From an uncultured Candidatus Saccharibacteria bacterium (lineage in GTDB: Bacteria; Patescibacteriota; Minisyncoccia; Phycocordibacterales; UBA9973): 47,327 bases of DNA. The stretch is from positions 222,665 to 269,991 of the forward strand of contig CAYOLW010000001.1 of NCBI GenBank assembly GCA_964404925.1, in the 5' to 3' direction. The notes beneath the pieces were generated by a model, which saw only the letters and a list, made by a program, of their open reading frames with translations, was not told the origin of the DNA and searched no databases. This document shows, one piece after another, positions 1 through 42,411 of the stretch (within the stretch, counting starts at the first letter, position 1; every line of letters begins with the position of its first letter). Position numbers and translations under genes: made by a program.

Positions 1-455
1 CTACTTACACCAGTAACCCAACCTACACAAGTAATCCGACTTATACTTCTAACCCTACATATACTTCTAACCCTACCTATACAACCAATCCTAGTTACGA
101 AACTAATCCTAGTTACGAAACAAATCCGACATATTCTACAAATCCAGACTACACAACAAATCCAAGTTATACCACTAACCCTGACTATACAACCAACCCA
201 AGTTACGCAACCAATCCTGGTTACATGACTAATCCTTCTTATACAACCAACCCTTCATACACCACTAACGCTGCATACAATACGAATGCTGGATATATGA
301 CAAATGCTGCTTATCAAACTTCAGGTGCATACTCTGCTTCTGGTGCATACGGTACATCTGGTGGCTACGCAGCCCCAGCAGGGTACATAACACCAGGTGC
401 AATAGTAGTACCAGCGGCTTATGAAACAAGTGGTAGCTACACTGTAGCTGGCTAA
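1..455 (+). CDS. 3' part of a Tyr/Thr/Asn/Pro-rich hexapeptide-repeat protein (5' end outside the window)
   Basis: Frame 3 is open from base 3 to TAA at 453-455. The translation is a tandem 18-nt/6-aa repeat (TYTSNP, TYTTNP, SYETNP, DYTTNP ...) that degenerates to AAY/GAY units near the C-terminus. The ORF track shows only the part after the first Met (225..455). Confidence 0.6.
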   Translation, partial: TYTSNPTYTSNPTYTSNPTYTSNPTYTTNPSYETNPSYETNPTYSTNPDYTTNPSYTTNPDYTTNPSYATNPGYMTNPSYTTNPSYTTNAAYNTNAGYMTNAAYQTSGAYSASGAYGTSGGYAAPAGYITPGAIVVPAAYETSGSYTVAG

Positions 456-1385: not shown

Positions 1386-2099
1386 ATGCGTTTCCATATA
1401 ATAAGTATTTTCCCGAATATTTTCGATTCATATATAAATGAGTCTATTTTAGGGCGGGCAATAGAGAACAAGCTAGTCAAAGTGAGTTTCTATAACCCAC
1501 GTGATTTTCTACCCAAAACAGCTAATAATTATCGTCCGGTAGATGCTCGTCCATATGGTGGTGGACCTGGTATGGTGATGCAAGCAGAACCTATATTAAA
1601 AGCTGTTGAGAAGGCCATCGCCACGGCCACTCGTTTTTCTTCAGGTCCTCGGATCTCCTCGACTAAAGCCTCGGCCAGACCGTTCAGAAAAACGAGTGGC
1701 CGTCTGCTTATAATTAATTTTATTCCTTCTGCAGAAAAATTTACTACAGTAGAAGCCAAGAAGATTTCAAAAAAATACACTGATGTGATTTTGATTTGTG
1801 GACGGTATGAAGGTATAGATGCACGTGTAGATAAAATTCTAAAAACAAAAAAGTTCTCAATCGGAGACTATGTGCTGACCGGAGGAGAAATCCCAGCCAT
1901 GGTGTTGATCGATTGTATTTCTCGCCAAATTCCAGGAGTGCTTGGCAAACTTGAATCCCTTGAAGAAGAAAGGGTTTCATCGAGCGAGGTGTATACCAGA
2001 CCCGAAATACTAAAATATAAGAACAAAAACTACAAAGTCCCTACAGTATTGCTTTCTGGGAATCATGCTAAAATAAATGAGTGGAAATCTAATCGCTAG
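1386..2099 (+). CDS. trmD: tRNA (guanine37-N1)-methyltransferase, carrying an in-frame 27-codon insertion
   Basis: MRFHIISIFPNIF..., RPYGGGPGMVM, ICGRYEGID and GDYVLTGGEIPAMVLID are TrmD motifs. The ATG at 1386 is preferred over the track's TTG at 1368 because TGcTATATT (1371-1379) lies 6 nt upstream of it. Confidence 0.92.
   Translation: MRFHIISIFPNIFDSYINESILGRAIENKLVKVSFYNPRDFLPKTANNYRPVDARPYGGGPGMVMQAEPILKAVEKAIATATRFSSGPRISSTKASARPFRKTSGRLLIINFIPSAEKFTTVEAKKISKKYTDVILICGRYEGIDARVDKILKTKKFSIGDYVLTGGEIPAMVLIDCISRQIPGVLGKLESLEEERVSSSEVYTRPEILKYKNKNYKVPTVLLSGNHAKINEWKSNR
1623..1703 (+). repeat. 81-nt GC-rich stem-loop element inserted in frame in trmD (copy 1)
   Basis: There is a perfect 18-bp inverted repeat, ACGGCCACTCGTTTTTCT (1623-1640) / AGAAAAACGAGTGGCCGT (1686-1703). 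Core segments at 1641-1659 and 1670-1685 are identical to 22002-22020 and 22031-22046 in tgt. It encodes a Ser/Arg/Pro/Ala-rich peptide at a position that is short in the E. coli TrmD sequence as I recall it. Confidence 0.8.
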
Positions 2100-11990: not shown

Positions 11991-13274
11991 ATGAAAAAAA
12001 CAAAAAAGAATTTTAAAAAAGCAGTCAAGGTAGTTAAGAAGGTTGTTAAAAAAGTAAAACCGGTTAAGAAAGTTAAAACAAAACCAAAATCCAAGCCTGT
12101 AAAAAAGGTGATACCTGTTGCAAAGCCAATCAAGAAAGCTGTCCTGAAAAAAGAAAAACCAGCTAAGGTAAAAGCTGAAAAAGCAAAAAAGTTAACATCC
12201 GCTGAACGCAAAGGAGAAGATTTACGTATTAAGTCAGACGATTTAATAGAAAAGGGTAGGAAAAGAGGTTTCATTACTTATGATGAAATTTTAAAAACTT
12301 TCCCAGATATTGAGAATAATATTCTATTCTTAGATGAATTATATGAAAAGTTTGCTACTGCCGGTATTGATGTCCTTGAAGGAGGAAACTTATTAAATCT
12401 AGACAATGAGCTAAACAGTAAGGATTTATTGAAAGGTGCAGCCCATGACTCAATCCAAATGTATTTAAAGGAGATTGGTCAATATCCATTGATATATGCA
12501 GCAGAAGAGCGTGATTTAGCAAAGAGAATTGAGAAGGGTGATGAAGAGGCAAAAAATTTGCTAGCCCGAGCAAACTTACGTTTGGTTGTTTCAATCGCTA
12601 AAAAGTACGTAGGTAGGAGTGCTAATCTGTCATTACTTGATTTAATTCAAGAAGGAAACCTTGGTCTATTTAAAGCTGTAGAAAAATTTGATTGGACAAA
12701 AGGTTATAAATTCTCTACCTATGCGACTTGGTGGATTAGGCAATCCATTACCCGAGCATTAGCTGACCAGTCACGTACTATCCGTATTCCTGTGCATATG
12801 GTTGAGACTATTTCTAAATATAAACAAATTCACCGTAAATTATCCCAAGACCTTGGACGCGAGCCTCTAGCTGAAGAAATCGCTACAGAAATGGGTATAC
12901 CGGTTGAGAAAATTCATGTCATTGAAAACATTTCCCAGGAAACAATATCATTGGAACAACCAGTGGGAGACGATGATGATAAATCAACTCTGGAGAACTT
13001 TATATCCGATGACAAAATTTTACGTCCTGACCAAGAATCTTCACGCCGAATACTTTCTGATCAGATAAAAGAAGTATTAGATGAGTTAAACCCAAAAGAA
13101 AGGAAAATATTAGAAATGCGTTATGGTTTAACCGATGGTATCCAGCACACATTAGAAAGAGTAGGGGAAGAGTTTGGTGTCACCCGGGAACGCATTCGTC
13201 AGATTGAGGCCAAGGTTCATGAGAAGCTTCGAAATCACGAAAAGATTTCAAGATTGAAGAACTATTTCGACTAA
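11991..13274 (+). CDS. rpoD: RNA polymerase sigma-70 family primary sigma factor with a Lys-rich N-terminal extension
   Basis: It has regions 1.2-4 ([61 protein letters not shown]). The first ~70 aa are K/V/P/A low-complexity. Confidence 0.93.
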
Positions 13275-13316
13275 TAAGGAGTATATATAAATTTATTTAT
13301 ATAATGTACCCAAAAT

Positions 13317-13341
13317 AAAAACCCCTTGAAAAGGGGTTTTT
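13317..13341. terminator. Bidirectional terminator between rpoD and the convergent DsbA-like gene
   Basis: AAAAA-CCCCTT-GAA-AAGGGG-TTTTT. Confidence 0.8.
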
Positions 13342-13361
13342 ATTTTGTAGCTGGAGTTGGT

Positions 13362-14108
13362 CTAATTTTGTAACAATCCGTCGACTAGAGTTGATAGCTG
13401 TTCAAATTGGAGTGCGCCGGGTACTAGTTGGACAAACTTACCATCCTTAAAGACAAAAGATGTCGGTGTGCCTTTGGCACCATTTTGACCTGCATCATTA
13501 ATACTTGCTTGAATAAGGTCAGAATACTTGTCGCTGTCTAAACAGTTTTTGAAATCATTAGTGTCTAAACCAATATCACTAGCAATCTTGTAAAGTTCGT
13601 TCGGGTCTAATAAATTGTTAGAATTTGTTCTGTTGTATAGTTCATTGGTATATCTCCAAAATGTATCATTACCACCTTGTTCTGCTGCACATTCAGTAGC
13701 TCGTGATTCACGAAAAGCTTTAGGATGTAGAGAAGCTATAGGGAAGTGCCTGTAAACCCATAGAACCTCGTCATTACTTGAGACTAATCGATGCATATCA
13801 GAATGGAATCTCTTGCAGAATGGGCATTCAGTATCTGAGTATTCTACAATTACAATTCTTCCTTTTGGATTGCCATATACATGGTCGGCAGCTGTTACTG
13901 GTGCGATGTTTGTTCCGCTACCAGCTGTGTCCATGGTTGTGCCTTGCCCCATGCTATTACTGACTACCCTTAATGTGTTTTCTGAATCATTAGTAGGTTC
14001 TGTGCCCTTAAGTAGAAATGTCCCTACTGCAGCGACTGCTACAATTATCACTGCACTTAATATGACACTATGGTTTGATTTTTTTATTATTTCCATGTTG
14101 TTTTCCAT
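13362..14108 (-). CDS. Membrane-anchored DsbA-family thiol:disulfide oxidoreductase
   Basis: It has an N-terminal TM helix and the CPFC active site in the context EYSDTECPFCKRFH (thioredoxin fold, DsbA-like). Confidence 0.8.
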   Translation of the reverse strand: MENNMEIIKKSNHSVILSAVIIVAVAAVGTFLLKGTEPTNDSENTLRVVSNSMGQGTTMDTAGSGTNIAPVTAADHVYGNPKGRIVIVEYSDTECPFCKRFHSDMHRLVSSNDEVLWVYRHFPIASLHPKAFRESRATECAAEQGGNDTFWRYTNELYNRTNSNNLLDPNELYKIASDIGLDTNDFKNCLDSDKYSDLIQASINDAGQNGAKGTPTSFVFKDGKFVQLVPGALQFEQLSTLVDGLLQN

Positions 14109-14226
14109 GATTATATCGTTAATTTTAATGTAATTATTATAACATTTATAGCCTAAGTCTTAGCTATTGACTGTTTTATAATTGGTTGTATTTTGGTGTA
14201 AAAAATGCTAATATGTAAAGCAGGTT

Positions 14227-15468
14227 ATGAATACCTTTTTCGATCTATTTTTCTATTTTTTATTGTTTCTGTCCCTGTACGTGCAGGTGTTTTTTTTAAT
14301 TACTTTTTTGGAAAACAGGCGAAAGATAGTTACTCGTACTGCTAAAATAGCCTTGGCTAATTATCCAAAAGTTACCATTACTGTTCCTTGCTGGAATGAG
14401 GAGTCTACTATTGAAAAAACAGTCCATTCGCTGCTCGGCCTTAATTATCCAAAAGATAAATTAGAAATATTCTTAGTTGATGATGGCTCACAGGATAATA
14501 CTTGGAACGTTTTACAAAAATTTACTTCATATTCAAATATAAAAGTTTTTCGAAAAGAAAATGGTGGCAAACACACCGCGCTTAATCTGGGTTTAGATAA
14601 CTCAACAGGAGAATACTTTGGCTGCCTGGACGCAGACTCGATAGCTGACCCAGAATCACTTATACGCATTATGTCTTATTTTGAGAAAGACCAAGCAACA
14701 ATGGCTGTGGCCCCTTCGATTATAGTTAATAATCCTAAAACTATAATCCAGAAAGCCCAGAAAGCTGAATACGATATGGCTGTTTATGTAAAAAAGATGC
14801 TAGCCTTTCTAGGCGCAATCCACGTGACGCCAGGGCCTCTGACCATTTTTAAAATACAGGTTTTTAAGGATTTAGGTCAGTATCGTAAAGCTCATAATAC
14901 AGAAGATATGGAGATTGCTTACCGGATGCAGACACATGGATACAAAATTGAGCAATGTAATGATGCTTATGTTTATACCAATACACCCCCTACTGTTAAA
15001 AAGCTGTACAAACAGCGTATCCGTTGGATTTACGGCTTTATTAATAATACGATAGATTATCGAAAGTTTTTATTTAAGAAAAAGTACGGGCACTTCTCAA
15101 CCTTTACTGTACCTTCTGGCATTATATCAATCATGGCAGCTACGTATGTATTGGTGCGGGTTGTGTCTAACTTGGTCTCAAGGGGATACGATCAATATTT
15201 AGTTTACCGTGCGGTTGGATTGCGTTGGCCAGAAGTTGGGTCTTTTGATCCATTTTTTATAAATACGAGTTCTTTACTTTTTATTAGTGTTGTATTGTAT
15301 AGCTTGATTTTCTTTGCTATTTGGAACGGCGGTGTAATTGCTCGTGACAATAAAGCTCTTTCTTGGAATGTGCTTTATTTCATGGTTATATACAGTGTTG
15401 TTGCCCCGTTCTGGTTGATGAAAGCAGTTTATAATACTATCGTATCCAAAAAGCCAGCTTGGCGTTAA
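14227..15468 (+). CDS. Processive family-2 glycosyltransferase (PgaC/cellulose-synthase-like), multi-TM
   Basis: Motifs VPCWNEE, DDGSQDNT, LDADS and QRIRW (QxxRW) are present, with hydrophobic N- and C-terminal segments. Confidence 0.8.
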   Translation: MNTFFDLFFYFLLFLSLYVQVFFLITFLENRRKIVTRTAKIALANYPKVTITVPCWNEESTIEKTVHSLLGLNYPKDKLEIFLVDDGSQDNTWNVLQKFTSYSNIKVFRKENGGKHTALNLGLDNSTGEYFGCLDADSIADPESLIRIMSYFEKDQATMAVAPSIIVNNPKTIIQKAQKAEYDMAVYVKKMLAFLGAIHVTPGPLTIFKIQVFKDLGQYRKAHNTEDMEIAYRMQTHGYKIEQCNDAYVYTNTPPTVKKLYKQRIRWIYGFINNTIDYRKFLFKKKYGHFSTFTVPSGIISIMAATYVLVRVVSNLVSRGYDQYLVYRAVGLRWPEVGSFDPFFINTSSLLFISVVLYSLIFFAIWNGGVIARDNKALSWNVLYFMVIYSVVAPFWLMKAVYNTIVSKKPAWR

Positions 15469-15471
15469 TTT

Positions 15472-16155
15472 ATGCAAAAACAAAATTTTAGTTTCAAAAA
15501 ATATATAGCAGTATTCTTTATAACTTTCTTACTATTTGTAACGGCAATTTATTTGAGTAATTTTTTCGGTGACAAGAAAGTAGCAGAATTACGGAATATC
15601 CAAGATAAAATATCTATGGACATACTTTCTTCTGAGACTCAGTATGCGTTACTTTCAGAGTTGTCTTGCAAGAATGTCACTAATTCAGTCCTATCTGATG
15701 AATTAAATAGCTTAGGTGCTAAACTTGAGTGGAGTGAAAACAACTTGGGCAATACTCAAGAAGTTGCTTATCTTAAAAAATACTACTCTTTACTTGAGAT
15801 TAAAGATTATTTATTAATGAAGAAAATTGCTGACAGGTGTAAACAGCATTATGCATTTATATTATATTTTTACACAAACGCTGAGAACTGCACTGAATGC
15901 AAAAGGGAAGGTGCTGTTTTATCAAGACTAAAAGAAGAGTACCCAGAACTACGAGTTTATTCTTTTGATTTCAGTACTGAGCTTTCAGCAGTTGAGACCA
16001 TGCTTAAAATATTCAAAATTGAGGACACTAAATTACCAGCTCTAGTATTGGATGATGAAGTGTTAACTGGTTTTCATTCCTTAGAAGAACTGCAAAATAA
16101 AATTGAGACTGAATTCAAACTAGAAAGTAAAGAAACATCTACCCAAGGGGAGTAG
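15472..16155 (+). CDS. Membrane-anchored thioredoxin-like (CxxC) protein, function unknown
   Basis: It has an N-terminal TM helix and a CTEC motif in a thioredoxin-like context (FYTNAENCTECKREG...). It starts 4 nt after the GT2 stop. Confidence 0.4.
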   Translation: MQKQNFSFKKYIAVFFITFLLFVTAIYLSNFFGDKKVAELRNIQDKISMDILSSETQYALLSELSCKNVTNSVLSDELNSLGAKLEWSENNLGNTQEVAYLKKYYSLLEIKDYLLMKKIADRCKQHYAFILYFYTNAENCTECKREGAVLSRLKEEYPELRVYSFDFSTELSAVETMLKIFKIEDTKLPALVLDDEVLTGFHSLEELQNKIETEFKLESKETSTQGE

Positions 16156-20584: not shown

Positions 20585-21365
20585 AAAAAACAAGAACAAG
20601 AAAAAAATACGCTTCACGTTAATAATTATTATAGCGGGAGCCTTTTTATATTTTAGTGGATCTATCTTTAATCTTCTTTCTCCTGGGACAGGTAGAGTGT
20701 TTTCTTCGGTTATGGGGCTCAGTACAAGAATAAAAAACAATATACATAATATATCTGCTTATTTTGTTAGTAAAAATTCGCTATTAAGCGAAAATGATTC
20801 TTTGAAAAATACTATTAGAGATAATGAAGCACGCATGGCTAACTACGAGGCGCTTTTTAATGAAAATGAAAAATTAAAAGAAATTTTATTACGTAAACAT
20901 GGTGAGCAGGCAATGCTTTTAGCAGGGATAATCAGTAGTCCTAACCAATCCCCATATGATACTTTAGTTATTGATGCTGGAGAATCTAACGGCATAAAAG
21001 TGGGGGATAAAGTTTTCGCTTATGGTGATATACCAATTGGTGTTGTGTCAGAAGTTATAAAGAATTCTGCAAAGGTCAGACTTTTCTCAACTTCAGGAGA
21101 ACATTTAACTGCCGTTTTAGCTGGTAGTGATACTTTTGTAGAATTGATTGGACGGGGTCGTGGGAATTTTGAAGCTATTCTACCTAGAGATTTTGAACTA
21201 GCAGAAGGAACCTTAGCACTTCTGCCGGGAGTAAATCCATATACAGTAGCTGAAGTTTCTTCTGTTATTTCTGATCCTCGTGATTCGTATAAAAAAGCAT
21301 TACTAAAAAGCCCTATTAATATTTTTGAATTAAAGTTCGTAGAAATATCTTTAGATGGAATTTAA
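20553..21365 (+). CDS. mreC: Rod-shape protein MreC
   Basis: It has an N-terminal TM, a coiled-coil and a beta-rich C-terminus, and lies directly after mreB. The start is uncertain (20553 or the ATG at 20565). Confidence 0.7.
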   Translation: MVTKMSYLQDKKNKNKKKIRFTLIIIIAGAFLYFSGSIFNLLSPGTGRVFSSVMGLSTRIKNNIHNISAYFVSKNSLLSENDSLKNTIRDNEARMANYEALFNENEKLKEILLRKHGEQAMLLAGIISSPNQSPYDTLVIDAGESNGIKVGDKVFAYGDIPIGVVSEVIKNSAKVRLFSTSGEHLTAVLAGSDTFVELIGRGRGNFEAILPRDFELAEGTLALLPGVNPYTVAEVSSVISDPRDSYKKALLKSPINIFELKFVEISLDGI

Positions 21366-22650
21366 AATTACAAAAAAATTAGATGGTCATTTGGGTAGAG
21401 CAGGAGTTGTCAGTACTCCACACGGAGAAATATTAACTCCGGCTTTTGTGGCGGTTGGGACAAAGGCGACAGTTAAATCTTTAAATCCAGATCAGGTTAA
21501 GGACGCCGGAACACAGGTGGTGCTTGGTAATACCTACCATTTATATTTGCAACCAGGGGACGAGATAGTGCGTGCTGCCGGTGGTATTGGTAAATTTATG
21601 AACTGGAGTGGTCCCACGATGACTGACTCGGGAGGTTTTCAAGTTTTTTCATTAGGTGCTGCATATGGTAAAGATATTTCCAAAATAGTTAAGATCACAG
21701 ATCCGTCACTTTTAATACCAGAGAGATTTGATGATTCTGATGCCCCCCGACTCGCAAAGATTGGACAGGATGGAGTTTCTTTTAAATCACACCTAGATGG
21801 AAGTATTCACTATATAACACCAGAGAAATCAATTGAGATTCAGCACAATCTGGGCGCGGATATGATATTTGCTTTTGACGAGTGCACTTCTCCGACAGAA
21901 GATTTGAAATATCAAAATGAGGCATTAGACCGCACCCATGCTTGGGCTAAGCGTAGTTTAAAAAGACACTTGGAACTCGAAGCACAGAAACAAGCTAGTC
22001 CTCAGGTCCTCGGATCTCCTTCGCCTACGGCTCGGCCAGACCGTTCGCCCCAGCTTGCTTCTGCGCTTCCTCAAGCGCTTTTCGGGATCGTGCAAGGCGG
22101 GCGGGAAGAAGAATTAAGGAAAAAATCTGCCCAGATTATTTCTGAAATGAATGTTGATGGAGTAGGATTTGATGGTTTTGGTATTGGAGGCTCATTTGCC
22201 AAGGAAGACATGTCTACTGCCGTTAAGTGGGTAAATGAAATTTTACCAGAAGAGAAGCCTCGACACCTTTTGGGTATTGGTGAACCAGAAGACTTATTTA
22301 TGGGGGTAGAAAACGGTGTTGATTTGTTTGATTGTGTGACACCTACCCGACTAGGCCGCAACGGCACACTTTATACCAAAGATGGTAAATTAATCATATT
22401 AAATGCCGAATTCAAAACTGATCATAGGCCTATTGAAAACGATTGTCCTTGCTATACCTGTACTAACTATACTAGGGCATATATAGCACATCTTTTCCGA
22501 GGTAAGGAAATGTTGGCTGGAACTTTGGCTTCTATTCATAATCTTCACTTCTTGGTTCATTTAGTGGCCGATATGAGGGAGTCTATCCTTAACGGTGGCT
22601 TTGAGAGTTTCAAGAACGGGTTCTTGGCCAGATATAATAAGAATATTTAA
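21355..22650 (+). CDS. tgt: Queuine tRNA-ribosyltransferase, carrying an in-frame ~30-codon insertion
   Basis: Motifs include VLGNTYHLYLQPG, TDSGGFQVFSL, MIFAFDECT, ALFGIVQGG and the Zn site CPCYTCTNYTRAYIAHL. Confidence 0.93.
   Translation: MEFKITKKLDGHLGRAGVVSTPHGEILTPAFVAVGTKATVKSLNPDQVKDAGTQVVLGNTYHLYLQPGDEIVRAAGGIGKFMNWSGPTMTDSGGFQVFSLGAAYGKDISKIVKITDPSLLIPERFDDSDAPRLAKIGQDGVSFKSHLDGSIHYITPEKSIEIQHNLGADMIFAFDECTSPTEDLKYQNEALDRTHAWAKRSLKRHLELEAQKQASPQVLGSPSPTARPDRSPQLASALPQALFGIVQGGREEELRKKSAQIISEMNVDGVGFDGFGIGGSFAKEDMSTAVKWVNEILPEEKPRHLLGIGEPEDLFMGVENGVDLFDCVTPTRLGRNGTLYTKDGKLIILNAEFKTDHRPIENDCPCYTCTNYTRAYIAHLFRGKEMLAGTLASIHNLHFLVHLVADMRESILNGGFESFKNGFLARYNKNI
21979..22069 (+). repeat. 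91-nt GC-rich stem-loop element inserted in tgt (copy 2)
   Basis: The 18-bp arms GAAGCACAGAAACAAGCT (21979-21996) and AGCTTGCTTCTGCGCTTC (22052-22069) pair at 16/18 positions, with two A-C mismatches. The core at 22002-22020 and 22031-22046 is identical to the trmD copy. It lies in the segment between WAKRS... and ALFGIVQGG that is short in E. coli Tgt. Confidence 0.8.
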
Positions 22651-28780: not shown

Positions 28781-30670
28781 ATGAAAAAATTCAAAGCCCT
28801 CGCGGCAATTCTCGTCTCAATTCTTTTTATTACCGGCAATATTTTTGCCCAAAATGCTTGTGGTATTCAGGCAACACCCACTACTCCCGTAGGTTGCTTT
28901 GGTAGTGCGACAGGGTCAATTGACCTTCAGTTGGCTAACCCCGGAGTATCTGGCGGTTACACCTATCAATGGTCTAACGGCGCCACCACCCAGGATCTGA
29001 CAAATATCCCGGCTGGTACCTATACCGTCCTGATTACATATTTGTGGAACGGGCAAGGATGTCAAAGCCAAAGTAATCCGATCACAGTTAATCAACCACA
29101 ATTCGGCCTCAGCCTGAACACATCTGCATTTCCGGTGTCGTGCTTCGGATTATCAGATGGTTGGACCGAACTCGTAATCTTGGGCGGAACCGCACCTTAT
29201 GAAACTCACTGGAGCAATGGTGCTAACACTGAGGACTTGGACAATGTTCCGGCCGGCACTTATTTTGTCACCGTAACAGATGCCAACGGATGCGTAAATA
29301 CCGGTGCTGTCACAGTTGGACAACCTGCCCCTTTGCAGGTTTCAACAAGTGTTCAGCAAGGTAGTTGCGGTCAGTTCGGCTCAATTGACGTGAGCGTATC
29401 TGGCGGAACAGCCGGCTATACCTATGACTGGAGCAATGACGGACCGGAAAGCCCGGACAACGACCCGCAGGATCTAAGTGGACTGACAACCGGAACTTAT
29501 ACTGTAACCATCACTGATGCACATGGATGCCCAGTAACCACTTCTGCCACAATTACTGGCGGCGGACAGGGTATCAACCCGAATGTAACCAGCACCTGTG
29601 ACGGTGCAATTATCAGCGGTTTGACGGCCGGTACTTATACGGTAACGATTACCAATGCTGACGGCTGTACTTCTGTGAAAACATTTACGGTTGCTTGCAA
29701 TCTTGCCGTTGGTGCTTCGGTATCCAATGTAAGTTGCAACGGCGGCAATAATGGTGCGATCAACCTGAACGTTACCGGTGGCACAATACCTTATACTTTC
29801 CACTGGAATACGGGCTCGTCAAACCAAAATTTGGCAAATCTACCAGCCGGAACTTATACGGTGACTGTCACTGATGCAACGAACAACACCAAAACTGTGA
29901 GCGCTACAGTGAGCCAACCTTCGGCAATTTTTACATCTGCAAGTGTCAATGACGTATCAAACAATGGTGGCTCAAACGGATCAATTAATTTGTCGGTAAG
30001 TGGTGGTACTCCGGGTTATACATTCCACTGGAACAACAATGCTTTGACGGAAGATGTTTTCAATCTTGCAGCCGGTATCTATACCGTAACTGTCACAGAT
30101 GTGAACTGGTGTACCGTAACGCTTTCGGCAACTGTAAACCAGCCGCCGCCATGTGTTGCACCCAATGCATCTTTCGCTGCAAGTAGCCCAACCGGGTTTA
30201 TTGCATACTGCGCAAATCTGAGCACTGGTACGAACCTCAGTTATCACTGGTGGTTTGGCGATGGTCAGGAATCAACAGAGGAGAATCCGACACATACATA
30301 CCAGAATACCGGTATGTACCTGATCACCTTGAAGGCCACGAATGAGTGTGGTCAGGATAGTGAAACTAAGAACATTCTTATCTCTGGCGGTGGCCCAACT
30401 CCGGTTGTGGAACCTGGCAATGATGAAAATGGACTGACTGTTTTCCCAAATCCGGCAGTTGATTTTGTGTCTGCTAAGTTTGAGAATTTTGAAAAAGCCG
30501 ACAATGTGTATTTGTTCAATTCTGTGGGTCAACAACTCGCAAGTTTTGGTTCTATTCGAACCAACGAACAAATCAACGTAGAAGGATTTGAAGCCGGCAC
30601 ATACTACCTTTGTTTCAAATTTGGCGACAAAATTACAACCCGGAAGCTCGTTAAATCGAGCAGTTTCTGA
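28781..30670 (+). CDS. Secreted protein with ~6 SprB-type repeats, a PKD domain and a T9SS type-A C-terminal sorting domain
   Basis: The signal peptide ends ...GNIFAQ. Repeated units have the form C.G...GSIDL...GG..GYTY.WSNGATT.DL.N.PAGTYTVT.TD. The PKD block is WWFGDGQESTEENPTHTYQNTGMYLITLKATNECG. The C-terminus is LTVFPNPAVDFVSAKF...LFNSVGQQL...GTYYLCFKFGDKITTRKLVK. Third codon positions are visibly richer in C/G than in the flanking genes. Confidence 0.85.
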   Translation: MKKFKALAAILVSILFITGNIFAQNACGIQATPTTPVGCFGSATGSIDLQLANPGVSGGYTYQWSNGATTQDLTNIPAGTYTVLITYLWNGQGCQSQSNPITVNQPQFGLSLNTSAFPVSCFGLSDGWTELVILGGTAPYETHWSNGANTEDLDNVPAGTYFVTVTDANGCVNTGAVTVGQPAPLQVSTSVQQGSCGQFGSIDVSVSGGTAGYTYDWSNDGPESPDNDPQDLSGLTTGTYTVTITDAHGCPVTTSATITGGGQGINPNVTSTCDGAIISGLTAGTYTVTITNADGCTSVKTFTVACNLAVGASVSNVSCNGGNNGAINLNVTGGTIPYTFHWNTGSSNQNLANLPAGTYTVTVTDATNNTKTVSATVSQPSAIFTSASVNDVSNNGGSNGSINLSVSGGTPGYTFHWNNNALTEDVFNLAAGIYTVTVTDVNWCTVTLSATVNQPPPCVAPNASFAASSPTGFIAYCANLSTGTNLSYHWWFGDGQESTEENPTHTYQNTGMYLITLKATNECGQDSETKNILISGGGPTPVVEPGNDENGLTVFPNPAVDFVSAKFENFEKADNVYLFNSVGQQLASFGSIRTNEQINVEGFEAGTYYLCFKFGDKITTRKLVKSSSF

Positions 30671-30773: not shown

Positions 30774-30829
30774 AATTTTTATAAAAAAAACAGAAAACCC
30801 CCAACCGGTAAGGCAGAGGGTTTTCATAT

Positions 30830-31177
30830 GGGTTGAGATGTCTATAAGCCGAATTCTGTTTTCGCCTCATCGGCGAATGGCAGTTATTTATCTAGGATTA
30901 TTGTTACCAATAACCTCAAGCGATTCTTTCGCCTTATCGGCAAACACGATCTTGCATTCACGTAAGGATTTAGCCGTTTCACTTTCCGCATTACTACGGA
31001 ACTCGCCCCTTGATTTCTCTCAGGGCGATTTTTCTCTTTCAAGAAAAATCGTCTCTGTTCGCACCTCGCACCTCGCGGTGGACGGGGGTTACCCGCTACG
31101 CTTTCCACCTCATCGGCGGATAAATGTTCGGACTTTCCTCTACGCCGTGGAGGCGTAGCAACTACCCAACATCTCGC
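30830..31177 (-). ncRNA. rnpB: RNase P RNA (bacterial type)
   Basis: The minus strand has GAGGAAAGUCCGAAC (CR-I, reverse complement of 31129-31140), ACAGAAUUCGGCUUAU (CR-V, reverse complement of 30844-30859), and P1 pairing GAGAUGU (31175-31169) with ACAUCUC (30841-30835). A promoter lies directly upstream. Confidence 0.9.
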
Positions 31178-31309: not shown

Positions 31310-31322
31310 GTTTTGTGCCTTC

Positions 31323-31390
31323 GTTAAAATATGCTTTTCTCACCCCGAACTACCTTCGGATCGTCGGCTGCTCGAAAAGCACATTTTAAC
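31323..31390. promoter_or_regulatory. 17-bp inverted repeat with a 34-nt spacer abutting the clp-like promoter
   Basis: GTTAAAATATGCTTTTC (31323-31339) and GAAAAGCACATTTTAAC (31374-31390) match at 16/17 positions. The right arm ends 7 nt before the TATAAT at 31398-31403. Confidence 0.5.
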
Positions 31391-31394
31391 TTTG

Positions 31395-31403
31395 TGATAT
31401 AAT
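31395..31403 (+). promoter_or_regulatory. Extended -10 (TGaTATAAT) 6 nt upstream of the clp-like ATG
   Basis: TGATATAAT at 31395-31403, atccac, then ATG at 31410. The same GTGATATAAT-N6-ATG occurs at 39817-39833. Confidence 0.6.
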
Positions 31404-33984: not shown

Positions 33985-36900
33985 ATGAAATTCAAATTGT
34001 TTTTTCTGACCCTTGTTGCGTTCATGGTTACTTTCAGTAACCCTCTCAACGCACAAGACTGCGTTGGTATCCACATTACCCAGCAATGGAATTGTGCTGA
34101 TGCCACCGCAACCGCCACGGCTCACCCCGAAGGTGGTACAGCGCCATACACCTACAATTGGTCAAATGGCGATACTGGCCCGACTGCGACAGATCTGGCC
34201 CCTGGCCAGCATTACGTTACGGTTACCGACGCCGTTGGCTGCCTCCATGTTGAGGCTTGCATTGTTGTTGTGCCCGAGTGCTGTATTTGGTTTAGTGTGA
34301 CGAGTACACCTGATGACTGTAAACCGGCTAACAACGGTCAAATCGCAATCTGGGAAATTGGTGGCGGAGTTCCTCCGTACACTATATCAATCTCAAACGG
34401 TATGACGAAAGTTAGTAACGGCAATGCACCCATCTTCATTAACAATCTGCCATCCGGTACGTATTACATCACTGTTGCAGATGCTACTTGTTCAAATGAA
34501 CAAATGATTGAAGTTGAACAGGAAAAAAGCCCTACCGTGAAGTTATTTTCAAATGGGTTAACCTGTACTGCAGCAACCACGGATATTACGACGCAGGTAA
34601 CCAATGGCCCGGTTACATTCCTTTGGAACACTGGTGCCACAACAAACAAACTTACGAATGTAGGCCCTGGTACTTATGGTGTTATAGTAACGAACCCTAA
34701 TGGCTGTAGCGATAGTGACACAATTACGATCAGCGCTCCGGCACAAGTTGTATTGAGTGCGACTGCTACTCCAACAGCATGTGGTGAGAATAACGGTATG
34801 ATTAACGTTTCAACGACTGCGAGTACTGTTATGGTAGTAGCACCCAATGGCGCTATATACAACCTTAACGGTTCCGCAACGATTACAAATTTACAACCTG
34901 GCGTGTATGAAATCACTGCCACGAACAGCAACGGCTGTTCAATGGTTGAAACTGCAATCGTGGGTGATAGTCAGCCGGCGAAAGATTCAGTTTCTTGCGT
35001 AACGATTTGTCAACCTAGTTTTGTAAATGGTGTATGGGTTTCCTCAAGCACTACGCTTACGGACACCTTGATCAATGCAAATGGTTGCGATTTTTTATTC
35101 AAGTTGATGGTGAATTTACAAACGATCGACACAACACATCAAACTGCTTTCACTTGCTTCGGTGGTGTTATTACAGTTAACGGTGTCGAATACAAAAAGG
35201 ACACTACTGTTTATGCTCAAACAAATGGAAATTGCCCCGGACTCACAATTTGGGATCTGCAGTTTTCCGATGAACCTGATACATTGCTTATGCCTGCGGT
35301 GAAAGTATGCGGTGGTGACAGTGCTTCCGTTTATACATTTGAAAACACAATCGGCATAAACACCGACTGTGCTGAACTTGTTGTAATACGGACATTTGAA
35401 CACCAGCCTTACACCCTACAGTATTCCTTAAGCAGTGCTGACACAATATGTGGATTCACAAACAGAACCGATTCATTGTTCCAAAAAATTAGTGTTGATA
35501 ATCAGAATTGCGTTATTAACCAGCCCTATGGCTTGTTGGTAACCAATACTCCGAAAGTTGACACTATTCCTGGTCCAACCCACTACATATGCGGCACTCC
35601 CGCAAGTACGATTTGGGTTGAAACAAAGGATATAATGAATCTTGAAAACTGTAGCCGTAAAATTGAAGGATACTGGCAAATCACGGGTCCAAAGCCTCCG
35701 ATGGTAATCCTATATCAGGACACTTGCTATAACGGACCGTTTCCTATTGCACCGGTGCAAATTTTGCACTCGGATTGTAATCCGGACACCTTGATTATCC
35801 CAATTCCTTATAATTCGGTAATTACTCCAATCAGTAAAAATCTTTGCTATGGTGATACTCTTCACTTTGGCAATATAAACATTACTGAAGCAGGTAGTTA
35901 TGAAGTATTTGCAGGACAGACGACTCATGGTTGCGACAGTGTAAATTTGGTAAATGTTACCATGGTTTTCGGTTCTAAATTTCAAACCACCCAGGACACC
36001 TGCGGCCTTACAGTTGCCGGTGAAAAATTCTGGACAGTTACCACAAGCCCAAACGGCTGTGTTGATTCTACTGAGGTAACCCTGAAATGGGTGCCTGGTT
36101 TTGAACTTGATTCTGTTTTTACGACGTGCCGCAAACAAGATGCTGTTTGCCATTCTGACACTATTCAAAAAAATGGTTGCTGGGGGATTGTGCACTACGG
36201 TGCAGATTACCTCCCAAACACTTTTTCTGAAGTTGCCTACACCTGTGATTCGTTGCAGGCTGGTTTTACTGTGAAGGCTTGGCTTCCCGCTAACCCGAAC
36301 GATCCGACCGATTGCGATTCGATAGTTTGGCTGCACAAAATTTTGCGTACAATTCAACCGACTCAATTGAATCCAGTGGTACTTTGCCCTGGTGAAAATG
36401 TTTTGTTTGAAGGGCAAAATTATCCTGCACCACCTGCTGGTGAGTCTGTGACTTTAACAAAAACTTACATGACACTTGAAGGATGTGATTCAGTTGTTAC
36501 TCAGGTAGTAACCGGATTGCCTCAATCGAATCGTGAAGTTTTGTTGAATGTATGTCCTGACGGCGAAGTTTACTTTGCTGAAGCAGATACTATTCTGACA
36601 GTTGGAACGTATGTTTTTGAATTTCCGGTTTTCGGTGGTTGTAATGAGATAGTTACTGTATCTGTAACTGAGTACACTGCAAATCTTTTTGCTTTTGTTC
36701 CCCAGGACACGACTATCGTTATGCCTATCGGGGTTACTCCTGCTCAGGTTGACGGTATTGTACAGGCACTTGTTACAACAAGTTGGTTTGGTTCTTTGGA
36801 AGACACAACGTGGACAATTGTTCGGCACGAACTTTTTGGACCGACGATTGTAAATGACTCGATTAATCAATACTTGGAAGTATGGGGTTTTCAAGGCCCA

Positions 36901-37287
36901 TGCGGACAATTAGATACGAGTCGTATCATTAACGTAGTTTTCCCAAAACCTGCTAAACCGCCAGTGATTATTTGCGATGTGATTGTACAACTTGTTGGTA
37001 ATGATAAGATTTCGATTAATATTTTGAATAATATTGTGGAAGGAGACACTTTGTCTCAATTTACTTACAGTATTTATTCAAATGCAGGGGTTGCTACTAT
37101 GGGTACGCTCAAGTATAACCCCCTTACCAATGATGGGCTTAATTTGATTCCATTACCACAGGCTTTGCTTGGCTTAAACATGTACATTGTGCACGTTGAA
37201 GCCATTGGTGATCCAAGTGGCGACGTGTACATTCTGGTACCCCCAGGTTCAAGTCCTAATGCGACTTCAATGGGGATTTGTCGTTAA
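33985..37287 (+). CDS. 1100-aa Cys-rich secreted protein with 4 N-terminal SprB-type repeats and a beta-sandwich-like C-terminal domain
   Basis: The signal peptide ends ...SNPLNAQ. The repeats include GGTAPYTYNWSNGDTGPTATDLAPGQHYVTVTDAVGC and similar units. A ~700-aa region rich in Cys, Thr and Asn follows. The C-terminal ~90 aa loosely resemble a T9SS sorting domain. Codon usage matches 28781..30670 and not the backbone. Confidence 0.75.
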   Translation: MKFKLFFLTLVAFMVTFSNPLNAQDCVGIHITQQWNCADATATATAHPEGGTAPYTYNWSNGDTGPTATDLAPGQHYVTVTDAVGCLHVEACIVVVPECCIWFSVTSTPDDCKPANNGQIAIWEIGGGVPPYTISISNGMTKVSNGNAPIFINNLPSGTYYITVADATCSNEQMIEVEQEKSPTVKLFSNGLTCTAATTDITTQVTNGPVTFLWNTGATTNKLTNVGPGTYGVIVTNPNGCSDSDTITISAPAQVVLSATATPTACGENNGMINVSTTASTVMVVAPNGAIYNLNGSATITNLQPGVYEITATNSNGCSMVETAIVGDSQPAKDSVSCVTICQPSFVNGVWVSSSTTLTDTLINANGCDFLFKLMVNLQTIDTTHQTAFTCFGGVITVNGVEYKKDTTVYAQTNGNCPGLTIWDLQFSDEPDTLLMPAVKVCGGDSASVYTFENTIGINTDCAELVVIRTFEHQPYTLQYSLSSADTICGFTNRTDSLFQKISVDNQNCVINQPYGLLVTNTPKVDTIPGPTHYICGTPASTIWVETKDIMNLENCSRKIEGYWQITGPKPPMVILYQDTCYNGPFPIAPVQILHSDCNPDTLIIPIPYNSVITPISKNLCYGDTLHFGNINITEAGSYEVFAGQTTHGCDSVNLVNVTMVFGSKFQTTQDTCGLTVAGEKFWTVTTSPNGCVDSTEVTLKWVPGFELDSVFTTCRKQDAVCHSDTIQKNGCWGIVHYGADYLPNTFSEVAYTCDSLQAGFTVKAWLPANPNDPTDCDSIVWLHKILRTIQPTQLNPVVLCPGENVLFEGQNYPAPPAGESVTLTKTYMTLEGCDSVVTQVVTGLPQSNREVLLNVCPDGEVYFAEADTILTVGTYVFEFPVFGGCNEIVTVSVTEYTANLFAFVPQDTTIVMPIGVTPAQVDGIVQALVTTSWFGSLEDTTWTIVRHELFGPTIVNDSINQYLEVWGFQGPCGQLDTSRIINVVFPKPAKPPVIICDVIVQLVGNDKISINILNNIVEGDTLSQFTYSIYSNAGVATMGTLKYNPLTNDGLNLIPLPQALLGLNMYIVHVEAIGDPSGDVYILVPPGSSPNATSMGICR

Positions 37288-37307
37288 ACAATGCATTCAT
37301 CACAAAA

Positions 37308-37353
37308 GTGCGGCGACACATACCTCGCTATGGCACACAGAATGTCGCCGCAC
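37308..37353 (+). terminator. Hairpin after the 1100-aa gene
   Basis: GTGCGGCGACA-N24-TGTCGCCGCAC is a perfect 11-bp stem, followed only by TTT. Confidence 0.45.
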
Positions 37354-37371
37354 TTTCAACTAACTTAAAAA

Positions 37372-39832: not shown

Positions 39833-40336
39833 ATGGAAAACAATAAGAAAAATACAAGCCTTATAATTAGCATTATTGCTGTGGTGGGCGTTATTGCTGG
39901 TGGTGTGTATTATTATAAATATGTACCCAAGGATGAGACCTCAAAGGAAAACACGTTTGTCGTTGATTCAAAAATATTTGCTACCACTCCTAAAGAAATA
40001 TTTCTAGAACGCAATACTGGACTCTATGACGCAGAATCCTTTGACGAGATGATGGCTGTCTCAAAAAAGTATGACAGTGTTGAGAGAGTGAAAGAAAATG
40101 AATCACTTTTTAAAGAAGCGAACAATAGTAAAAAGGAAGCATTCTTTGGGTTTGCGCAGGCGCTCATGGTGCCCACATCCAGCTTTACCAGCGTAGAAGA
40201 GACCGTGTCTGGGGATACAGCACAGGTGATAGCGATAGACAGCAAGGGTAATCAATCTACAGCGAATTTTGTCAAAGAAGGTGGCGACTGGAAAATAAGC
40301 GAAATCAAGGTTCTGCAGATGCCGGGTCAAAGATAA
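39833..40336 (+). CDS. Membrane-anchored hypothetical protein
   Basis: It has an N-terminal TM helix and a small globular C-terminus ending ...FVKEGGDWKISEIKV. TGaTATAAT lies 6 nt upstream of the ATG. Confidence 0.45.
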   Translation: MENNKKNTSLIISIIAVVGVIAGGVYYYKYVPKDETSKENTFVVDSKIFATTPKEIFLERNTGLYDAESFDEMMAVSKKYDSVERVKENESLFKEANNSKKEAFFGFAQALMVPTSSFTSVEETVSGDTAQVIAIDSKGNQSTANFVKEGGDWKISEIKVLQMPGQR

Positions 40337-40338
40337 AA

Positions 40339-41133
40339 ATGAAGTTACGTAATTTACTTTTAATTTTAATTATTTTATTTGGGGAACTCGTAGGAGTGGC
40401 CTGGTATTTAGGCTTTGATAAAAGTAAATTAAGTGACTTGTCTTTTTACCTCGATTTAGCTAATCCTTCAGTTAAAGTTGTACGGGTAGTGGAAGGTATG
40501 CGTAAAGAAGAGATTGCCGAACAAGTAGCCAAGAAGCTCGGCTGGGGTGAAGAAGATAAAGAAAATTTCTTGAATGCACATATCGCTTTTAATACCCCGG
40601 ACTTAGAAGGCCGATATTTCCCCAAGACATATTTGATTGATATTAAGGATAATCCAAGTGATGTGTCGAACGCAATGGTGTCTGAATTTGAGAAGCAAAC
40701 AGAAAAGATTAAAAAGCCCACCAAATCGCTCGTCATGAATGAAGATACTATGATAAAAATTGCTTCAATTATTCAGCGTGAAGCTGCAGGTAAAAACGAC
40801 ATGCGTTTAATATCTGGGGTTATTTGGAATAGAATTTGGATCGGAATGAAACTCCAGATGGATGCGACACTTCAGTATGCCAAAGGTAGCGAAGAGGAAG
40901 GATGGTGGCCGAGAGTAGAATCAGGAGATAAAAATATTGAATCTTATTACAATACGTATATGTATAAGGGTCTGCCTCCGGGACCTATTGGTAACCCAGG
41001 GTTTGATGCATTAGAAGCGGCATACAACCCGCAGCCAACCACATGCCTGTTCTATATACACGACAAAAAACGCAAAATTCACTGCGCTGAAACATATGAA
41101 CAGCATAAAAAGAATATAGATAAGTATTTGTAG
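40339..41133 (+). CDS. mltG: Endolytic murein transglycosylase MltG (YceG-like)
   Basis: It has an N-terminal TM and ASIIQREA...DATLQYA...YNTYMYKGLPPGPIGNPG, typical of the YceG/MltG family. Confidence 0.85.
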   Translation: MKLRNLLLILIILFGELVGVAWYLGFDKSKLSDLSFYLDLANPSVKVVRVVEGMRKEEIAEQVAKKLGWGEEDKENFLNAHIAFNTPDLEGRYFPKTYLIDIKDNPSDVSNAMVSEFEKQTEKIKKPTKSLVMNEDTMIKIASIIQREAAGKNDMRLISGVIWNRIWIGMKLQMDATLQYAKGSEEEGWWPRVESGDKNIESYYNTYMYKGLPPGPIGNPGFDALEAAYNPQPTTCLFYIHDKKRKIHCAETYEQHKKNIDKYL

Positions 41134-41284: not shown

Positions 41285-41355
41285 GGGCCCATAGTTAAGT
41301 GGTATAACGCGTCCATGGCATGGATGAGGCCGGAGTTCAATTCTCCGTGGGTCCA
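41285..41355 (+). tRNA. tRNA-Ala (GGC), no encoded CCA
   Basis: The sequence is GGGCCCAUAGUUAAGUGGUAUAACGCGUCCAUGGCAUGGAUGAGGCCGGAGUUCAAUUCUCCGUGGGUCCA. The anticodon loop is AUGGCAU and G3:U70 is present. Confidence 0.88.
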
Positions 41356-41361
41356 CATTTA

Positions 41362-42411
41362 ATGAATAAATACACAAACCGTAAACATAAATTCTATAAT
41401 ACCTCTGTCAAAGCTTGGCAGGGTATGTATGAGGCAATCCAGTCAGCTCGTATCTCTGTTTATATGGAAATGTATATTTTCCTTGATGATATCAAGGAAT
41501 TCGATTTCGTTTCTTTGCTGATCCAAAAAGCAAAAAGCGGTGTACAGGTAAAAATAATTCTAGACGCCTATGGTTCTATGGAATTAAACAGGAAATCTAT
41601 TGCCCAATTAAAAGAGGCTGGTATTGAGGTGTTTTTCATAAGTTATTTCTGGCATCGACTGCACAGGAAGATATTAATTATAGATGAGCAAACGGCATTT
41701 TTTGGAGGAGTGAATATTCATCATTCTGCAAAAGAGTGGCTGGATTTGATGATGGAAATTCGTGGCAAAATAGTAGAGAGGTTTGTTCGTATTTTTGCAC
41801 GAGATTACGTTTTGGCTGGGGGGAGTCGATCCTGTTTTGGTGGCACATAATAAAAAGGTTTTTTTACATAAAACTCGGACTTTTATCGTAGACCATTTGC
41901 CTATGATCAAAAAGTTCCGAATGAAAGATTTATATAAAGATCATATTGCCCTAGCAAAAAAAGAGATAACCCTAGTGACTCCGTATTTTGTGCCTAAAAG
42001 GTGGTTCGTTGCATTACTACACCAGGCTGTGTTGCGTGGGGTGGAGGTCAGCGTTATTATTCCCGAGAATACAGAACATGTACTCTTAACTAAGACTAAT
42101 TATTTTTATATGAATCGTGCTCAAAAGCTAGGAATAAAGTTTTACTTAGGTAACAGTATGAACCATGCAAAGATTATGCTAATAGATAGCGATGAAGCTT
42201 TAATTGGTTCACAAAATTTAGACTTTTGTCTTTTGAATTAAACTCAGAGATAGGTGTTTTCTTTAAGCAGAGGGGTGTTGTGACTAATTTATATAATATA
42301 ACCTCAAAATGGAAAAGCCAGTCAAAACCATTGATTGAATCCAAATACAGACTCAATTTTTTTGAAAGGATATTTGCCCATATTCTTAACGTCTTTGTGC
42401 AGATTTTGTAA
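41362..42411 (+). pseudogene. Cardiolipin synthase / phospholipase D family gene disrupted by two frameshifts
   Basis: HKD motif 1 (HRKILIIDEQTAFFGGVNI) is in frame 1 and HKD motif 2 (HAKIMLIDSDEALIGSQNLD) is in frame 2. The tail SFELNSEIGVFF is back in frame 1. The shifts are near the G6 run at 41818-41823 and at about 42224-42232. The start is set at ATG 41362 because the track start (41320) lies inside tRNA-Ala. Confidence 0.8.

Follow-up and report, generated by a model that had tools for sequence, protein, structure and literature searches.

Copies of the element in trmD and tgt

The stretch of DNA analysed here (the window) comprises 47,327 nt from an uncultured Candidatus Saccharibacteria bacterium (assembly GCA_964404925.1, contig CAYOLW010000001.1, positions 222,665 to 269,991, forward strand). 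It contains a GC-rich stem-loop element of 81 nt, which lies in frame within the gene trmD, and a second copy of the same element in tgt. The original prediction, made from the letters of the window, had described the trmD feature as one copy of a palindromic family that enters housekeeping genes in frame. Host genes and parts of both copies are as follows.

1386..2099, + strand: trmD, tRNA m1G37 methyltransferase, host gene of copy 1 (open reading frame (ORF) list; PF01746 orthologues; PDB TrmD matches with E ~4e-44)
1619..1707, + strand: whole copy 1 according to the covariance model of the family (cmsearch 87.4 bits, E = 5e-19, filters off)
1623..1640, + strand: outer arm 1, ACGGCCACTCGTTTTTCT, of a perfect inverted repeat; codes for TATRFS and extends the native TrmD helix
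1641..1659, + strand: 5' core box, TCAGGTCCTCGGATCTCCT, same in the tgt copy; its GGTC, GG and CC pair with the 3' box
1660..1669, + strand: variable apex, CGACTAAAGC, a small hairpin with the adjoining bases; subtype-specific within the family
1670..1685, + strand: 3' core box, CTCGGCCAGACCGTTC, same in the tgt copy; GGCCAGACC is invariant in the alignment
1686..1703, + strand: outer arm 2, AGAAAAACGAGTGGCCGT, perfect complement of arm 1; codes for RKTSGR
21355..22650, + strand: tgt, queuine tRNA-ribosyltransferase, host gene of copy 2 (ORF list; PF01702 orthologues)
21979..22069, + strand: copy 2 (arm 1 at 21979-22001, core and apex at 22002-22046, arm 2 at 22047-22069), read as …SPQVLGSPSPTARPDRSPQ…

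Translation of trmD is likely to start at ATG 1386; the orthologues (PF01746) begin with MRFH, and the mechanically called ORF begins at TTG 1368. The arms ACGGCCACTCGTTTTTCT and AGAAAAACGAGTGGCCGT were found at 1623-1640 and 1686-1703 as predicted, 100% complementary over 18 bp and separated by 45 nt. The element begins on a codon boundary and adds 27 codons with the translation TATRFSSGPRISSTKASARPFRKTSGR. Its GC content is 0.55-0.58, compared with 0.29-0.43 in the flanks, in agreement with the description of a GC-rich insert in an AT-rich gene, and it folds far more stably than its dinucleotide shuffles (z = -5.7). Residues 83-131 of the window TrmD match 26 residues in TrmD of H. influenzae (4mcb), and the protein is therefore ~23 residues longer at this point than the solved structures. 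The short linker that had been described for E. coli TrmD is consistent with these structures. In an AlphaFold2 (AF2) model of the window TrmD, helix 67-83 takes in the residues encoded by arm 1, residues 85-103 (core and start of arm 2) have a predicted local distance difference test score (pLDDT) <50, and the next native strand starts at 107.

Both loop strings had been reported to recur verbatim in tgt. Within the window, TCAGGTCCTCGGATCTCCT and CTCGGCCAGACCGTTC have just two occurrences each (1641/1670 in trmD, 22002/22031 in tgt), with a chance expectation of about 0 and 0.1 matches, respectively. The tgt copy has imperfect arms of 23 nt with the same 45-nt spacing as in trmD (cmsearch 72.8 bits at 21980-22068). 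Its apex TCGCCTACGG differs in sequence from CGACTAAAGC of the trmD copy, and both pair. Three A·C mismatches on the + strand of the tgt copy correspond to G·U pairs on the - strand, and the fold energy is -48.6 kcal/mol for the - strand vs -34.3 kcal/mol for the + strand. The core is read in a frame different from that used in trmD (…QVLGSPSPTARPDRS…, QVLGSPSP…); hence it is the nucleotide sequence and not the peptide that both copies share. An exhaustive covariance-model search of the whole window returned the trmD and tgt copies only, the next match scoring 19.5 bits.

Searches and distribution of the family

For detection of further copies, the core pattern TCAGGTCCTCGG-N(4-34)-GGCCAGACCG was scanned over one genome per GTDB species. 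The exact pattern gave 86 loci. All of the ~38 loci in low-GC Patescibacteria had flanking complementary arms, which begin immediately before TCAGG and 3 nt after GACCG. Arms were present in none of the ~48 GC-rich matches (Actinomycetota and others), which are chance matches. The records of the low-GC hosts are labelled Paceibacterota, Nomurabacteria, Parcubacteria, 'Patescibacteria group' and, in some cases, 'uncultured Candidatus Saccharibacteria'. With a relaxed search pattern and with a covariance model (R1), further copies were detected in trmD, smc and elsewhere, including in TrmD gene regions of metagenomes and assemblies. In total, the family comprises about 50 copies in >30 Patescibacteria assemblies. 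The search with the core that had been proposed as a check thus recovered numerous additional copies, both intergenic and within other genes.

Since the window comes from a metagenome-type assembly, an assembly artefact, a chimera or a chance palindrome was considered. The copies come from >30 independent assemblies of different projects and are also found at orthologous sites, which refutes an artefact, and neither the expectation of ~0 for the core strings nor the fold z-score of -5.7 fits a chance event. We regard the probability of this explanation as negligible.

An Rfam scan of the window at gathering score returned RNase P and four tRNAs only and no match to the element. A sensitive scan of 1560-1770 on both strands returned generic miRNA hairpins with at most 21 bits, compared with thresholds of 74-100. 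The element was not found in viral contigs, and neither terminator-like nor promoter-like sites were predicted at either window copy on either strand. Full-text literature searches returned nothing relevant for bacteria of the candidate phyla radiation (CPR) or Patescibacteria, in line with the statement that no such element was known from CPR-like genomes, and the family is apparently undescribed.

A second hairpin of like layout lies in the window at 31318-31395 (+ strand), between the RNase P RNA (30829-31177, - strand) and a clpB-like gene (31410). It consists of the arm GTTAAAATATGCTTTTC, a different GC-rich core TCACCCCGAACTACCTTCGGATCGTCGGCTGCTC and the arm GAAAAGCACATTTTAAC; the junction is TTTTC/GAAAA, and the arms contain an A·C mismatch. 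Its score with model R1 is 19 bits, and a further copy was present in none of 173 fetched loci. This hairpin may represent a sister family of the trmD/tgt element.

Anatomy and fold

The modules were described from an alignment of 32 copies (alignment A2). The hairpins are ~76-100 nt long and comprise three modules, namely an outer stem, a core module and an apex hairpin. The outer stem has 16-27 bp and is AT-rich like the host genome. The only arm sequence common to the copies is a TTT/AAA tract adjoining the core. The GC-rich, invariant core module reads 5'-TCAGGTCCTCGG-WTYTCC … GGCCAGACCGTTC-3'. Its helices GGTC/GACC, GG/CC and CC/GG are paired in 98-100% of cases, with fixed unpaired bases between them; the 5' core box TCAGGTCCTCGGATCTCCT is invariant or nearly so over the 32 copies, its inner helices being 100% paired. 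The apex hairpin is GC-rich and varies in sequence and length by subtype; its stem forms in 7/7 apex subtypes, and the inner fold is alike in all seven. Of the conserved 45-nt loop that had been described, the conserved centre was therefore retained; the loop itself is not open and folds into short bulged helices and the apex hairpin.

Arms of non-orthologous copies agree at 13.6 of 36 positions, compared with 13.4 after shuffling. Pairing is nevertheless kept: 84% of the arm cells are paired, vs 33-51% if the partner is slid along, and 21 of the 22 arm pairs vary on both sides, values reached in none of 500 shuffles. Covariation of the stems, which had been suggested as a test, is thus overwhelming. 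The claim that the stems are specific to each copy holds in general; it is not absolute, as loci L014 and L018 share their arms.

Host sites and reading frames

The copies occupy long ORFs in three sense and three antisense frames, and they also lie outside ORFs. Host proteins are TrmD, Tgt, SMC, PolA, LeuRS (two sites), PheT (PheRS beta), UvrB, UvrD, MnmA, Dus and YchF, and the copies fall in linkers that are poorly conserved. In PolA, the linker that joins the 5'-3' exonuclease domain to the polymerase domain carries the element. Copies outside ORFs were found at at least six intergenic sites between intact genes, for example between the genes for an ABC ATPase and its permease, immediately 3' of map and 5' of recA. 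With respect to the local coding strand, which is a weak proxy, 13 were co-oriented, 8 opposite and 4 mixed; by this proxy, no clear tie of orientation to replication or coding strand was seen. All intragenic copies have a length that is a multiple of three and are stop-free in the host frame, and no gene is split. This strict preservation of the frame would be expected of translated copies and argues against splicing or ribosomal bypass. From these frame data and the low-confidence loop in the TrmD model, the intragenic copies would simply be translated into an unstructured surface loop, as is the case for Rickettsia palindromic elements (RPEs).

An element that is removed or skipped before the protein is made, by intron-like excision or by translational bypassing (as of 'byp' elements or in T4 gene 60), would be compatible with a stable hairpin that brings both flanks together and with the presence of GC-rich inserts in AT-rich genes, as is typical of byps. 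GC-rich 'byp' inserts were reportedly described in Magnusiomyces mitochondria by Lang et al. in 2014. We consider this route very improbable, because intragenic copies are stop-free multiples of three over six combinations of frame and orientation, no gene is split out of frame, copies outside ORFs lie between intact genes, and both intron motifs and an Rfam match are absent. A bulge-helix-bulge intron, an intein and a group I/II intron were rejected on anatomy: the internal loop is present on both strands and has no staggered 3-nt bulges, the element has only 81 nt, and the frame is kept.

Many TrmD orthologues carry …KFSSGPRxSS…SARPFRK… at the same position, as would be expected if the insert were a conserved functional peptide loop of Paceibacteria TrmD and the palindrome incidental. 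Relatives with this peptide, however, also carry both the core and the palindrome. The different frame in tgt, the six frames used elsewhere and the intergenic copies refute a peptide-level explanation; moreover, variation is seen in the flanking codons but not at synonymous positions of the core, AF2 predicts a disordered peptide, and close relatives lack it. We give this explanation hardly any credence.

Evolutionary constraint and strand asymmetry

Between the window and its closest relative (L169), four substitutions were found in the arms of the trmD copy, 4/4 of them compensated, so that both stems are perfect. The 45-nt core differs by one change, and the neighbouring codons have many synonymous differences. 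For a comparison unbiased by the core pattern, orthologue groups of the trmD and smc sites were collected via the host protein. Mean identities were as follows.

trmD site: core 0.88, flanking coding DNA 0.72-0.74, arms 0.61
smc site: core 0.89, flanking coding DNA 0.73-0.76, arms 0.67

Among orthologous pairs, which are non-independent events, 129 compensated changes were counted vs 65 single changes that break a pair (52 vs 1 at trmD). Mismatches in the arms were strongly biased: on the strand that reads TCAGG, A·C was found 31 times and G·T 6 times (p = 4e-5). By class of site, the A·C:G·T counts were 8:0 for intergenic, 4:0 for antisense and 19:6 for sense copies. Avoidance of stop codons was ruled out as the source of the bias by the intergenic and antisense counts, and the bias is accordingly neither a by-product of coding nor tied to the host mRNA. 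In every subtype the fold is stabler for the complementary strand (GAACGGTCTGGCC…CCGAGGACCTGA), with RNA as well as DNA parameters. As the A·C bias is irrespective of the orientation of the host gene, the folded form that is maintained appears to be that of the complementary strand. In trmD this strand is complementary to the mRNA, which argues against a role in the host mRNA.

These patterns would also fit a structured signal that benefits the host and is kept by purifying selection, that is, a strand-specific hairpin of single-stranded DNA or RNA bound by a host protein. Replication priming, chromosome organisation and RNA processing are conceivable roles, and the in-frame positions would be those where the signal fits. 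At orthologous sites the core changes more slowly than the coding DNA on either side, arm changes are compensated, the wobble asymmetry follows the strand of the element and not the host gene, the copy number is low, neither target-site duplications nor terminal inverted repeats are present, and retention is long (polA, at least 8 loci; trmD, 31 protein clusters; tgt, at least 8). We consider such a signal a serious possibility, if on balance an unlikely one, since at each site the element is missing from many close relatives, the same linkers also receive inserts of unrelated families, orientation is independent of gene direction and local coding-strand bias, the family is patchy among Patescibacteria, and the positions point to no particular function. 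In addition, one whole hairpin was duplicated to a second intergenic site in the same genome, which is the behaviour of a repeat element.

Insertions in the TrmD and Tgt linkers

For TrmD, 107 of 120 sequences could be classified (13/120 unclassified). In 31 of the 107 orthologues the linker is filled with the element, in 45 it is empty, and in 31 it carries another insert; these states require at least 18 changes on the tree. The alignment with close orthologues that had been proposed thus showed the 27-codon insert to be absent from close relatives. At least six unrelated short inserts occupy the linker in other lineages (alignment A1; L091, L092/L115, L093/L096, L100, L107/L119 and L120), including STPSRKRATPQEG, ASTDIARRDSAES, TPSTPFPKGRGQGDGS, NYELRIKN and a perfect 13-bp GC palindrome. 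Most of these are compact GC-rich hairpins that lack long AT-rich arms, from which it follows that the arm architecture is specific to the trmD/tgt element family. Two further sites in TrmD also carry inserts, namely PFDSAPSTTLRINQGKKQ, and RQAQDKFQ in P0076.

For Tgt (orthologues P0122-P0240), 69/120 sequences were unclassified. The linker from HAWAKRS to LFGIVQG has 14-18 residues when empty and 36-46 with the element (40 in the window Tgt). Judged by its peptide, the Tgt P0213 appears to carry the element in antisense orientation. At least four unrelated insert families were found in the Tgt linker of other lineages:

SHSVLEGQD…
LSHDSHSNLN…AYVEENT
FxGSLSPSADGALTLGSTACERP
PLRQGEDRGGV…PLAKGE

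The TrmD helix-strand, Tgt and PolA interdomain linkers are hotspots that have received several unrelated insert families in different lineages. As element-free relatives exist and unrelated inserts share these linkers, no given site requires the element, which counts against the host signal considered above.

Reassortment of modules and origin of the arms

The pairs L040/L051 and L002/L042, each within one genome, have identical core and apex and unrelated arms. Conversely, L014 and L018 (one genome) have arms alike at 29/36 positions and different apexes, and at the orthologous site downstream of map the apex subtype differs between two genomes. The modules are thus subject to reassortment. 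Ectopic conversion via the conserved core boxes, together with an occasional duplication of a whole hairpin, would account for this pattern.

Exchange between lineages is illustrated by the filled locus L174 and the empty locus L175. They are 94% identical, and 100% over ~80 nt upstream of the site, where a 36-nt block is replaced by a 96-nt hairpin. The arms of L174 are unrelated to the displaced native block and equal to the allele of other filled lineages. Along with the patchy distribution at trmD (at least 18 changes), this indicates exchange of alleles from lineage to lineage and not fresh insertion.

Alternatively, the arms could be made locally at insertion, either as an inverted copy of the target or through fold-back template switching that turns the native flanks into a palindrome, only the core being mobile. 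Several observations are in keeping with such an origin: arms are unrelated between loci while core and apex are identical within a genome; the outer arm halves at the smc site fall on the conserved native codons KRFS and ENL, with a net gain of only ~30 nt; and the native ISVASK codons of two empty alleles, L103 and L168, are similar to arm 1 of L167. The latter alleles could, however, be deletion derivatives, the L174 arms match those of other filled lineages and not the native block they replaced, and the arms of L014 and L018 travel with the element. Local formation of the arms is thus judged quite improbable.

Interpretation

The feature in trmD and tgt is likely a copy of a family of dispersed, low-copy palindromic DNA elements of Paceibacteria/Patescibacteria, which is translated where it is intragenic and whose folded strand is maintained. 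The class-level explanation, a dispersed palindromic element that is translated where intragenic, is well supported, and the proposed nucleotide-level, RPE-like palindromic family in frame in housekeeping genes is supported by copies in multiple frames and between genes. The mechanistic part is what we infer from the conservation pattern and from comparison of copies. According to the former, what is maintained would be a hairpin of single-stranded DNA or RNA, formed by the complement of the TCAGG… strand. The conserved bulged core would be the recognition site of a putative structure-specific protein acting in trans, for which the outer stem need only pair. Copy comparisons suggest that core and apex are homogenised between copies of one genome, that whole hairpins are now and then copied to new sites, and that filled and empty alleles are swapped between lineages by homologous recombination. 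The partner protein would serve either the element, as a means of selfish spread, or the host. Core conservation above that of coding DNA, fast-evolving paired stems, the wobble bias of one strand and the reassortment of modules jointly point to such a structure-specific partner. Of the three roles suggested earlier (selfish DNA hairpin, RNA-level processing or regulatory structure, recognition site of a structure-specific enzyme), the analysis favours the last, with the structure recognised on one single strand.

Several points weigh against this interpretation. Transposase, recombinase, HUH protein and RAYT-like genes are absent among the ~40 genes of the window, and mobility is indicated only indirectly, by the scatter of the copies, by a single pair that shares its arms, and by presence/absence polymorphism, which at trmD looks like exchange of alleles and not fresh insertion. 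Species-representative genomes have 1-2 exact-core copies, which is unlike a proliferating miniature inverted-repeat transposable element (MITE), and 12 model matches were found in 0.82 Mb of related DNA. For loci found by the exact core pattern, the discovery route inflates the identities, and the counts of compensated changes derive from the non-independent pairs mentioned above. Translation of the insert is a deduction, not an observation. Finally, conservation of the core above coding DNA at old orthologous sites fits purifying selection at the host level at least as well as selfish spread.

A stronger claim, which we consider doubtful, is that the strand-specific folded core is itself the unit of selection and is recognised by a putative dedicated enzyme, which would make the family a new kind of repeat, or alternatively that the hairpins are host chromosomal signals. 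The putative enzyme would copy or convert the core-apex cassette only, and each locus would keep its own stem. If true, this would imply a mechanism of cassette exchange or homing distinct from transposition based on terminal inverted repeats or on HUH enzymes; in the alternative case, host chromosomal signals would be embedded in essential genes.

With the likely reading of a dispersed palindromic family, essential CPR enzymes would carry translated palindromic DNA in surface linkers. This is relevant to annotation of CPR proteomes (spurious 'low-complexity' regions and inflated diversity of protein families), to structure prediction and to the question of how tiny genomes tolerate selfish DNA. 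The family would also be a natural example of a nucleic-acid structure that is selected within coding sequence independently of the reading frame.

Comparison with known systems

RPEs are short palindromic repeats found between genes and in frame in unrelated housekeeping genes, where surface regions tolerate them (PMC10969869). They have ~100-150 bp, are alike over their full length within a family, and each family codes for a conserved peptide (PMC10969869). The trmD/tgt element is similar in being intergenic as well as in frame and stop-free in 11 housekeeping genes, and in its disordered loop in the TrmD model. In contrast to RPEs, only a ~31-nt central module is conserved, the stems are unrelated between loci, and six different peptides are encoded; the element also belongs to another phylum and has a much lower copy number, and the likeness is one of behaviour. 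It is RPE-like in behaviour and falls outside RPEs by their defining features, and its architecture of a conserved core with site-specific stems is new.

MITEs have shared terminal inverted repeats, target-site duplications and a cognate transposase, and some form in-frame ORF fusions (PMC10969869). The trmD/tgt element shares with MITEs (Correia/NEMIS, ERIC, Nezha) that it is a small, non-coding, hairpin-forming dispersed repeat. No transposase was found among the genes of the window, and each genome has 1-2 exact copies. That the architecture is not the usual one of a MITE had been noted before and is borne out by termini that are locus-specific and share only TTT/AAA. Target-site duplications do not exceed chance, the best direct repeat flanking the copies averaging 3.0 nt vs 2.7 nt at control positions.

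In REP/REPIN sequences with RAYT and in IS200/IS605 elements, imperfect hairpins are strand-specific single-stranded substrates of an HUH enzyme and persist vertically for a long time. The strand-specific wobble asymmetry and fixed bulges of the trmD/tgt element fit this logic of a single-stranded substrate. REPs differ in being extragenic with conserved stems; here the internal-loop module is conserved and many copies are intragenic. No RAYT or TnpA gene was found in the window. The attC sites of integrons are recognised as a folded single strand, in which extrahelical bases set the choice of strand; short boxes are conserved and the remainder only pairs. The conserved boxes of attC lie at the base of the hairpin and its centre is variable, which is the reverse of the trmD/tgt element, and neither an integrase nor a cassette context was seen. 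By analogy, the element in its logic most resembles the substrates of structure-specific single-strand enzymes such as HUH transposases and integron integrases.

Mobile GC clusters of yeast mitochondrial DNA, 'byp' elements and the double hairpins of Allomyces mitochondrial DNA are GC-rich inserts that invade AT-rich genomes, coding regions included. A GC-rich hairpin in an AT-rich genome is common to these and the trmD/tgt element. The former are organellar, and byps are bypassed by the ribosome and need no frame, whereas the frame is strict here.

Other features of the window and related loci

Two further inverted repeats were found in the window. The first, at 37305-37356, is GC-rich and has perfect 14-bp arms (AAAGTGCGGCGACA / TGTCGCCGCACTTT) around a 24-nt loop. 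It lies 18 nt past the stop of a 1100-aa ORF, is not followed by a T-run and, with 9.5 bits, is outside the trmD/tgt family. At 40335-40446, an AT-rich imperfect repeat with 28-nt arms (82% complementary, 56 nt apart) overlies the start of a YceG/MltG-like gene (40339).

In L168, rpoB was called as two overlapping genes at 12620-15794 (454 + 613 aa). It is one gene of 1051 aa in the window and in L170/L172, and an assembly error, a frameshift or an insert that interrupts the gene could account for the split.

Upstream of rpsP, at 225-455 (+ strand), there is an ORF of low complexity in which TNPSYTTN/AAY motifs recur. Large proteins with SprB repeats and PKD domains are encoded at 28781-30670 and 33985-37287 (both + strand); the former also has a Por_Secre_tail domain (C-terminal sorting for type IX secretion), which is unexpected for a Paceibacteria-like genome. 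At 41320-42241 (+ strand), the overlapping ORFs 41320-41850 and 41783-42241 both match PLDc_2 and may represent a frameshifted or split phospholipase-D-like gene. The first of these ORFs overlaps tRNA-Ala(GGC) at 41285-41356.

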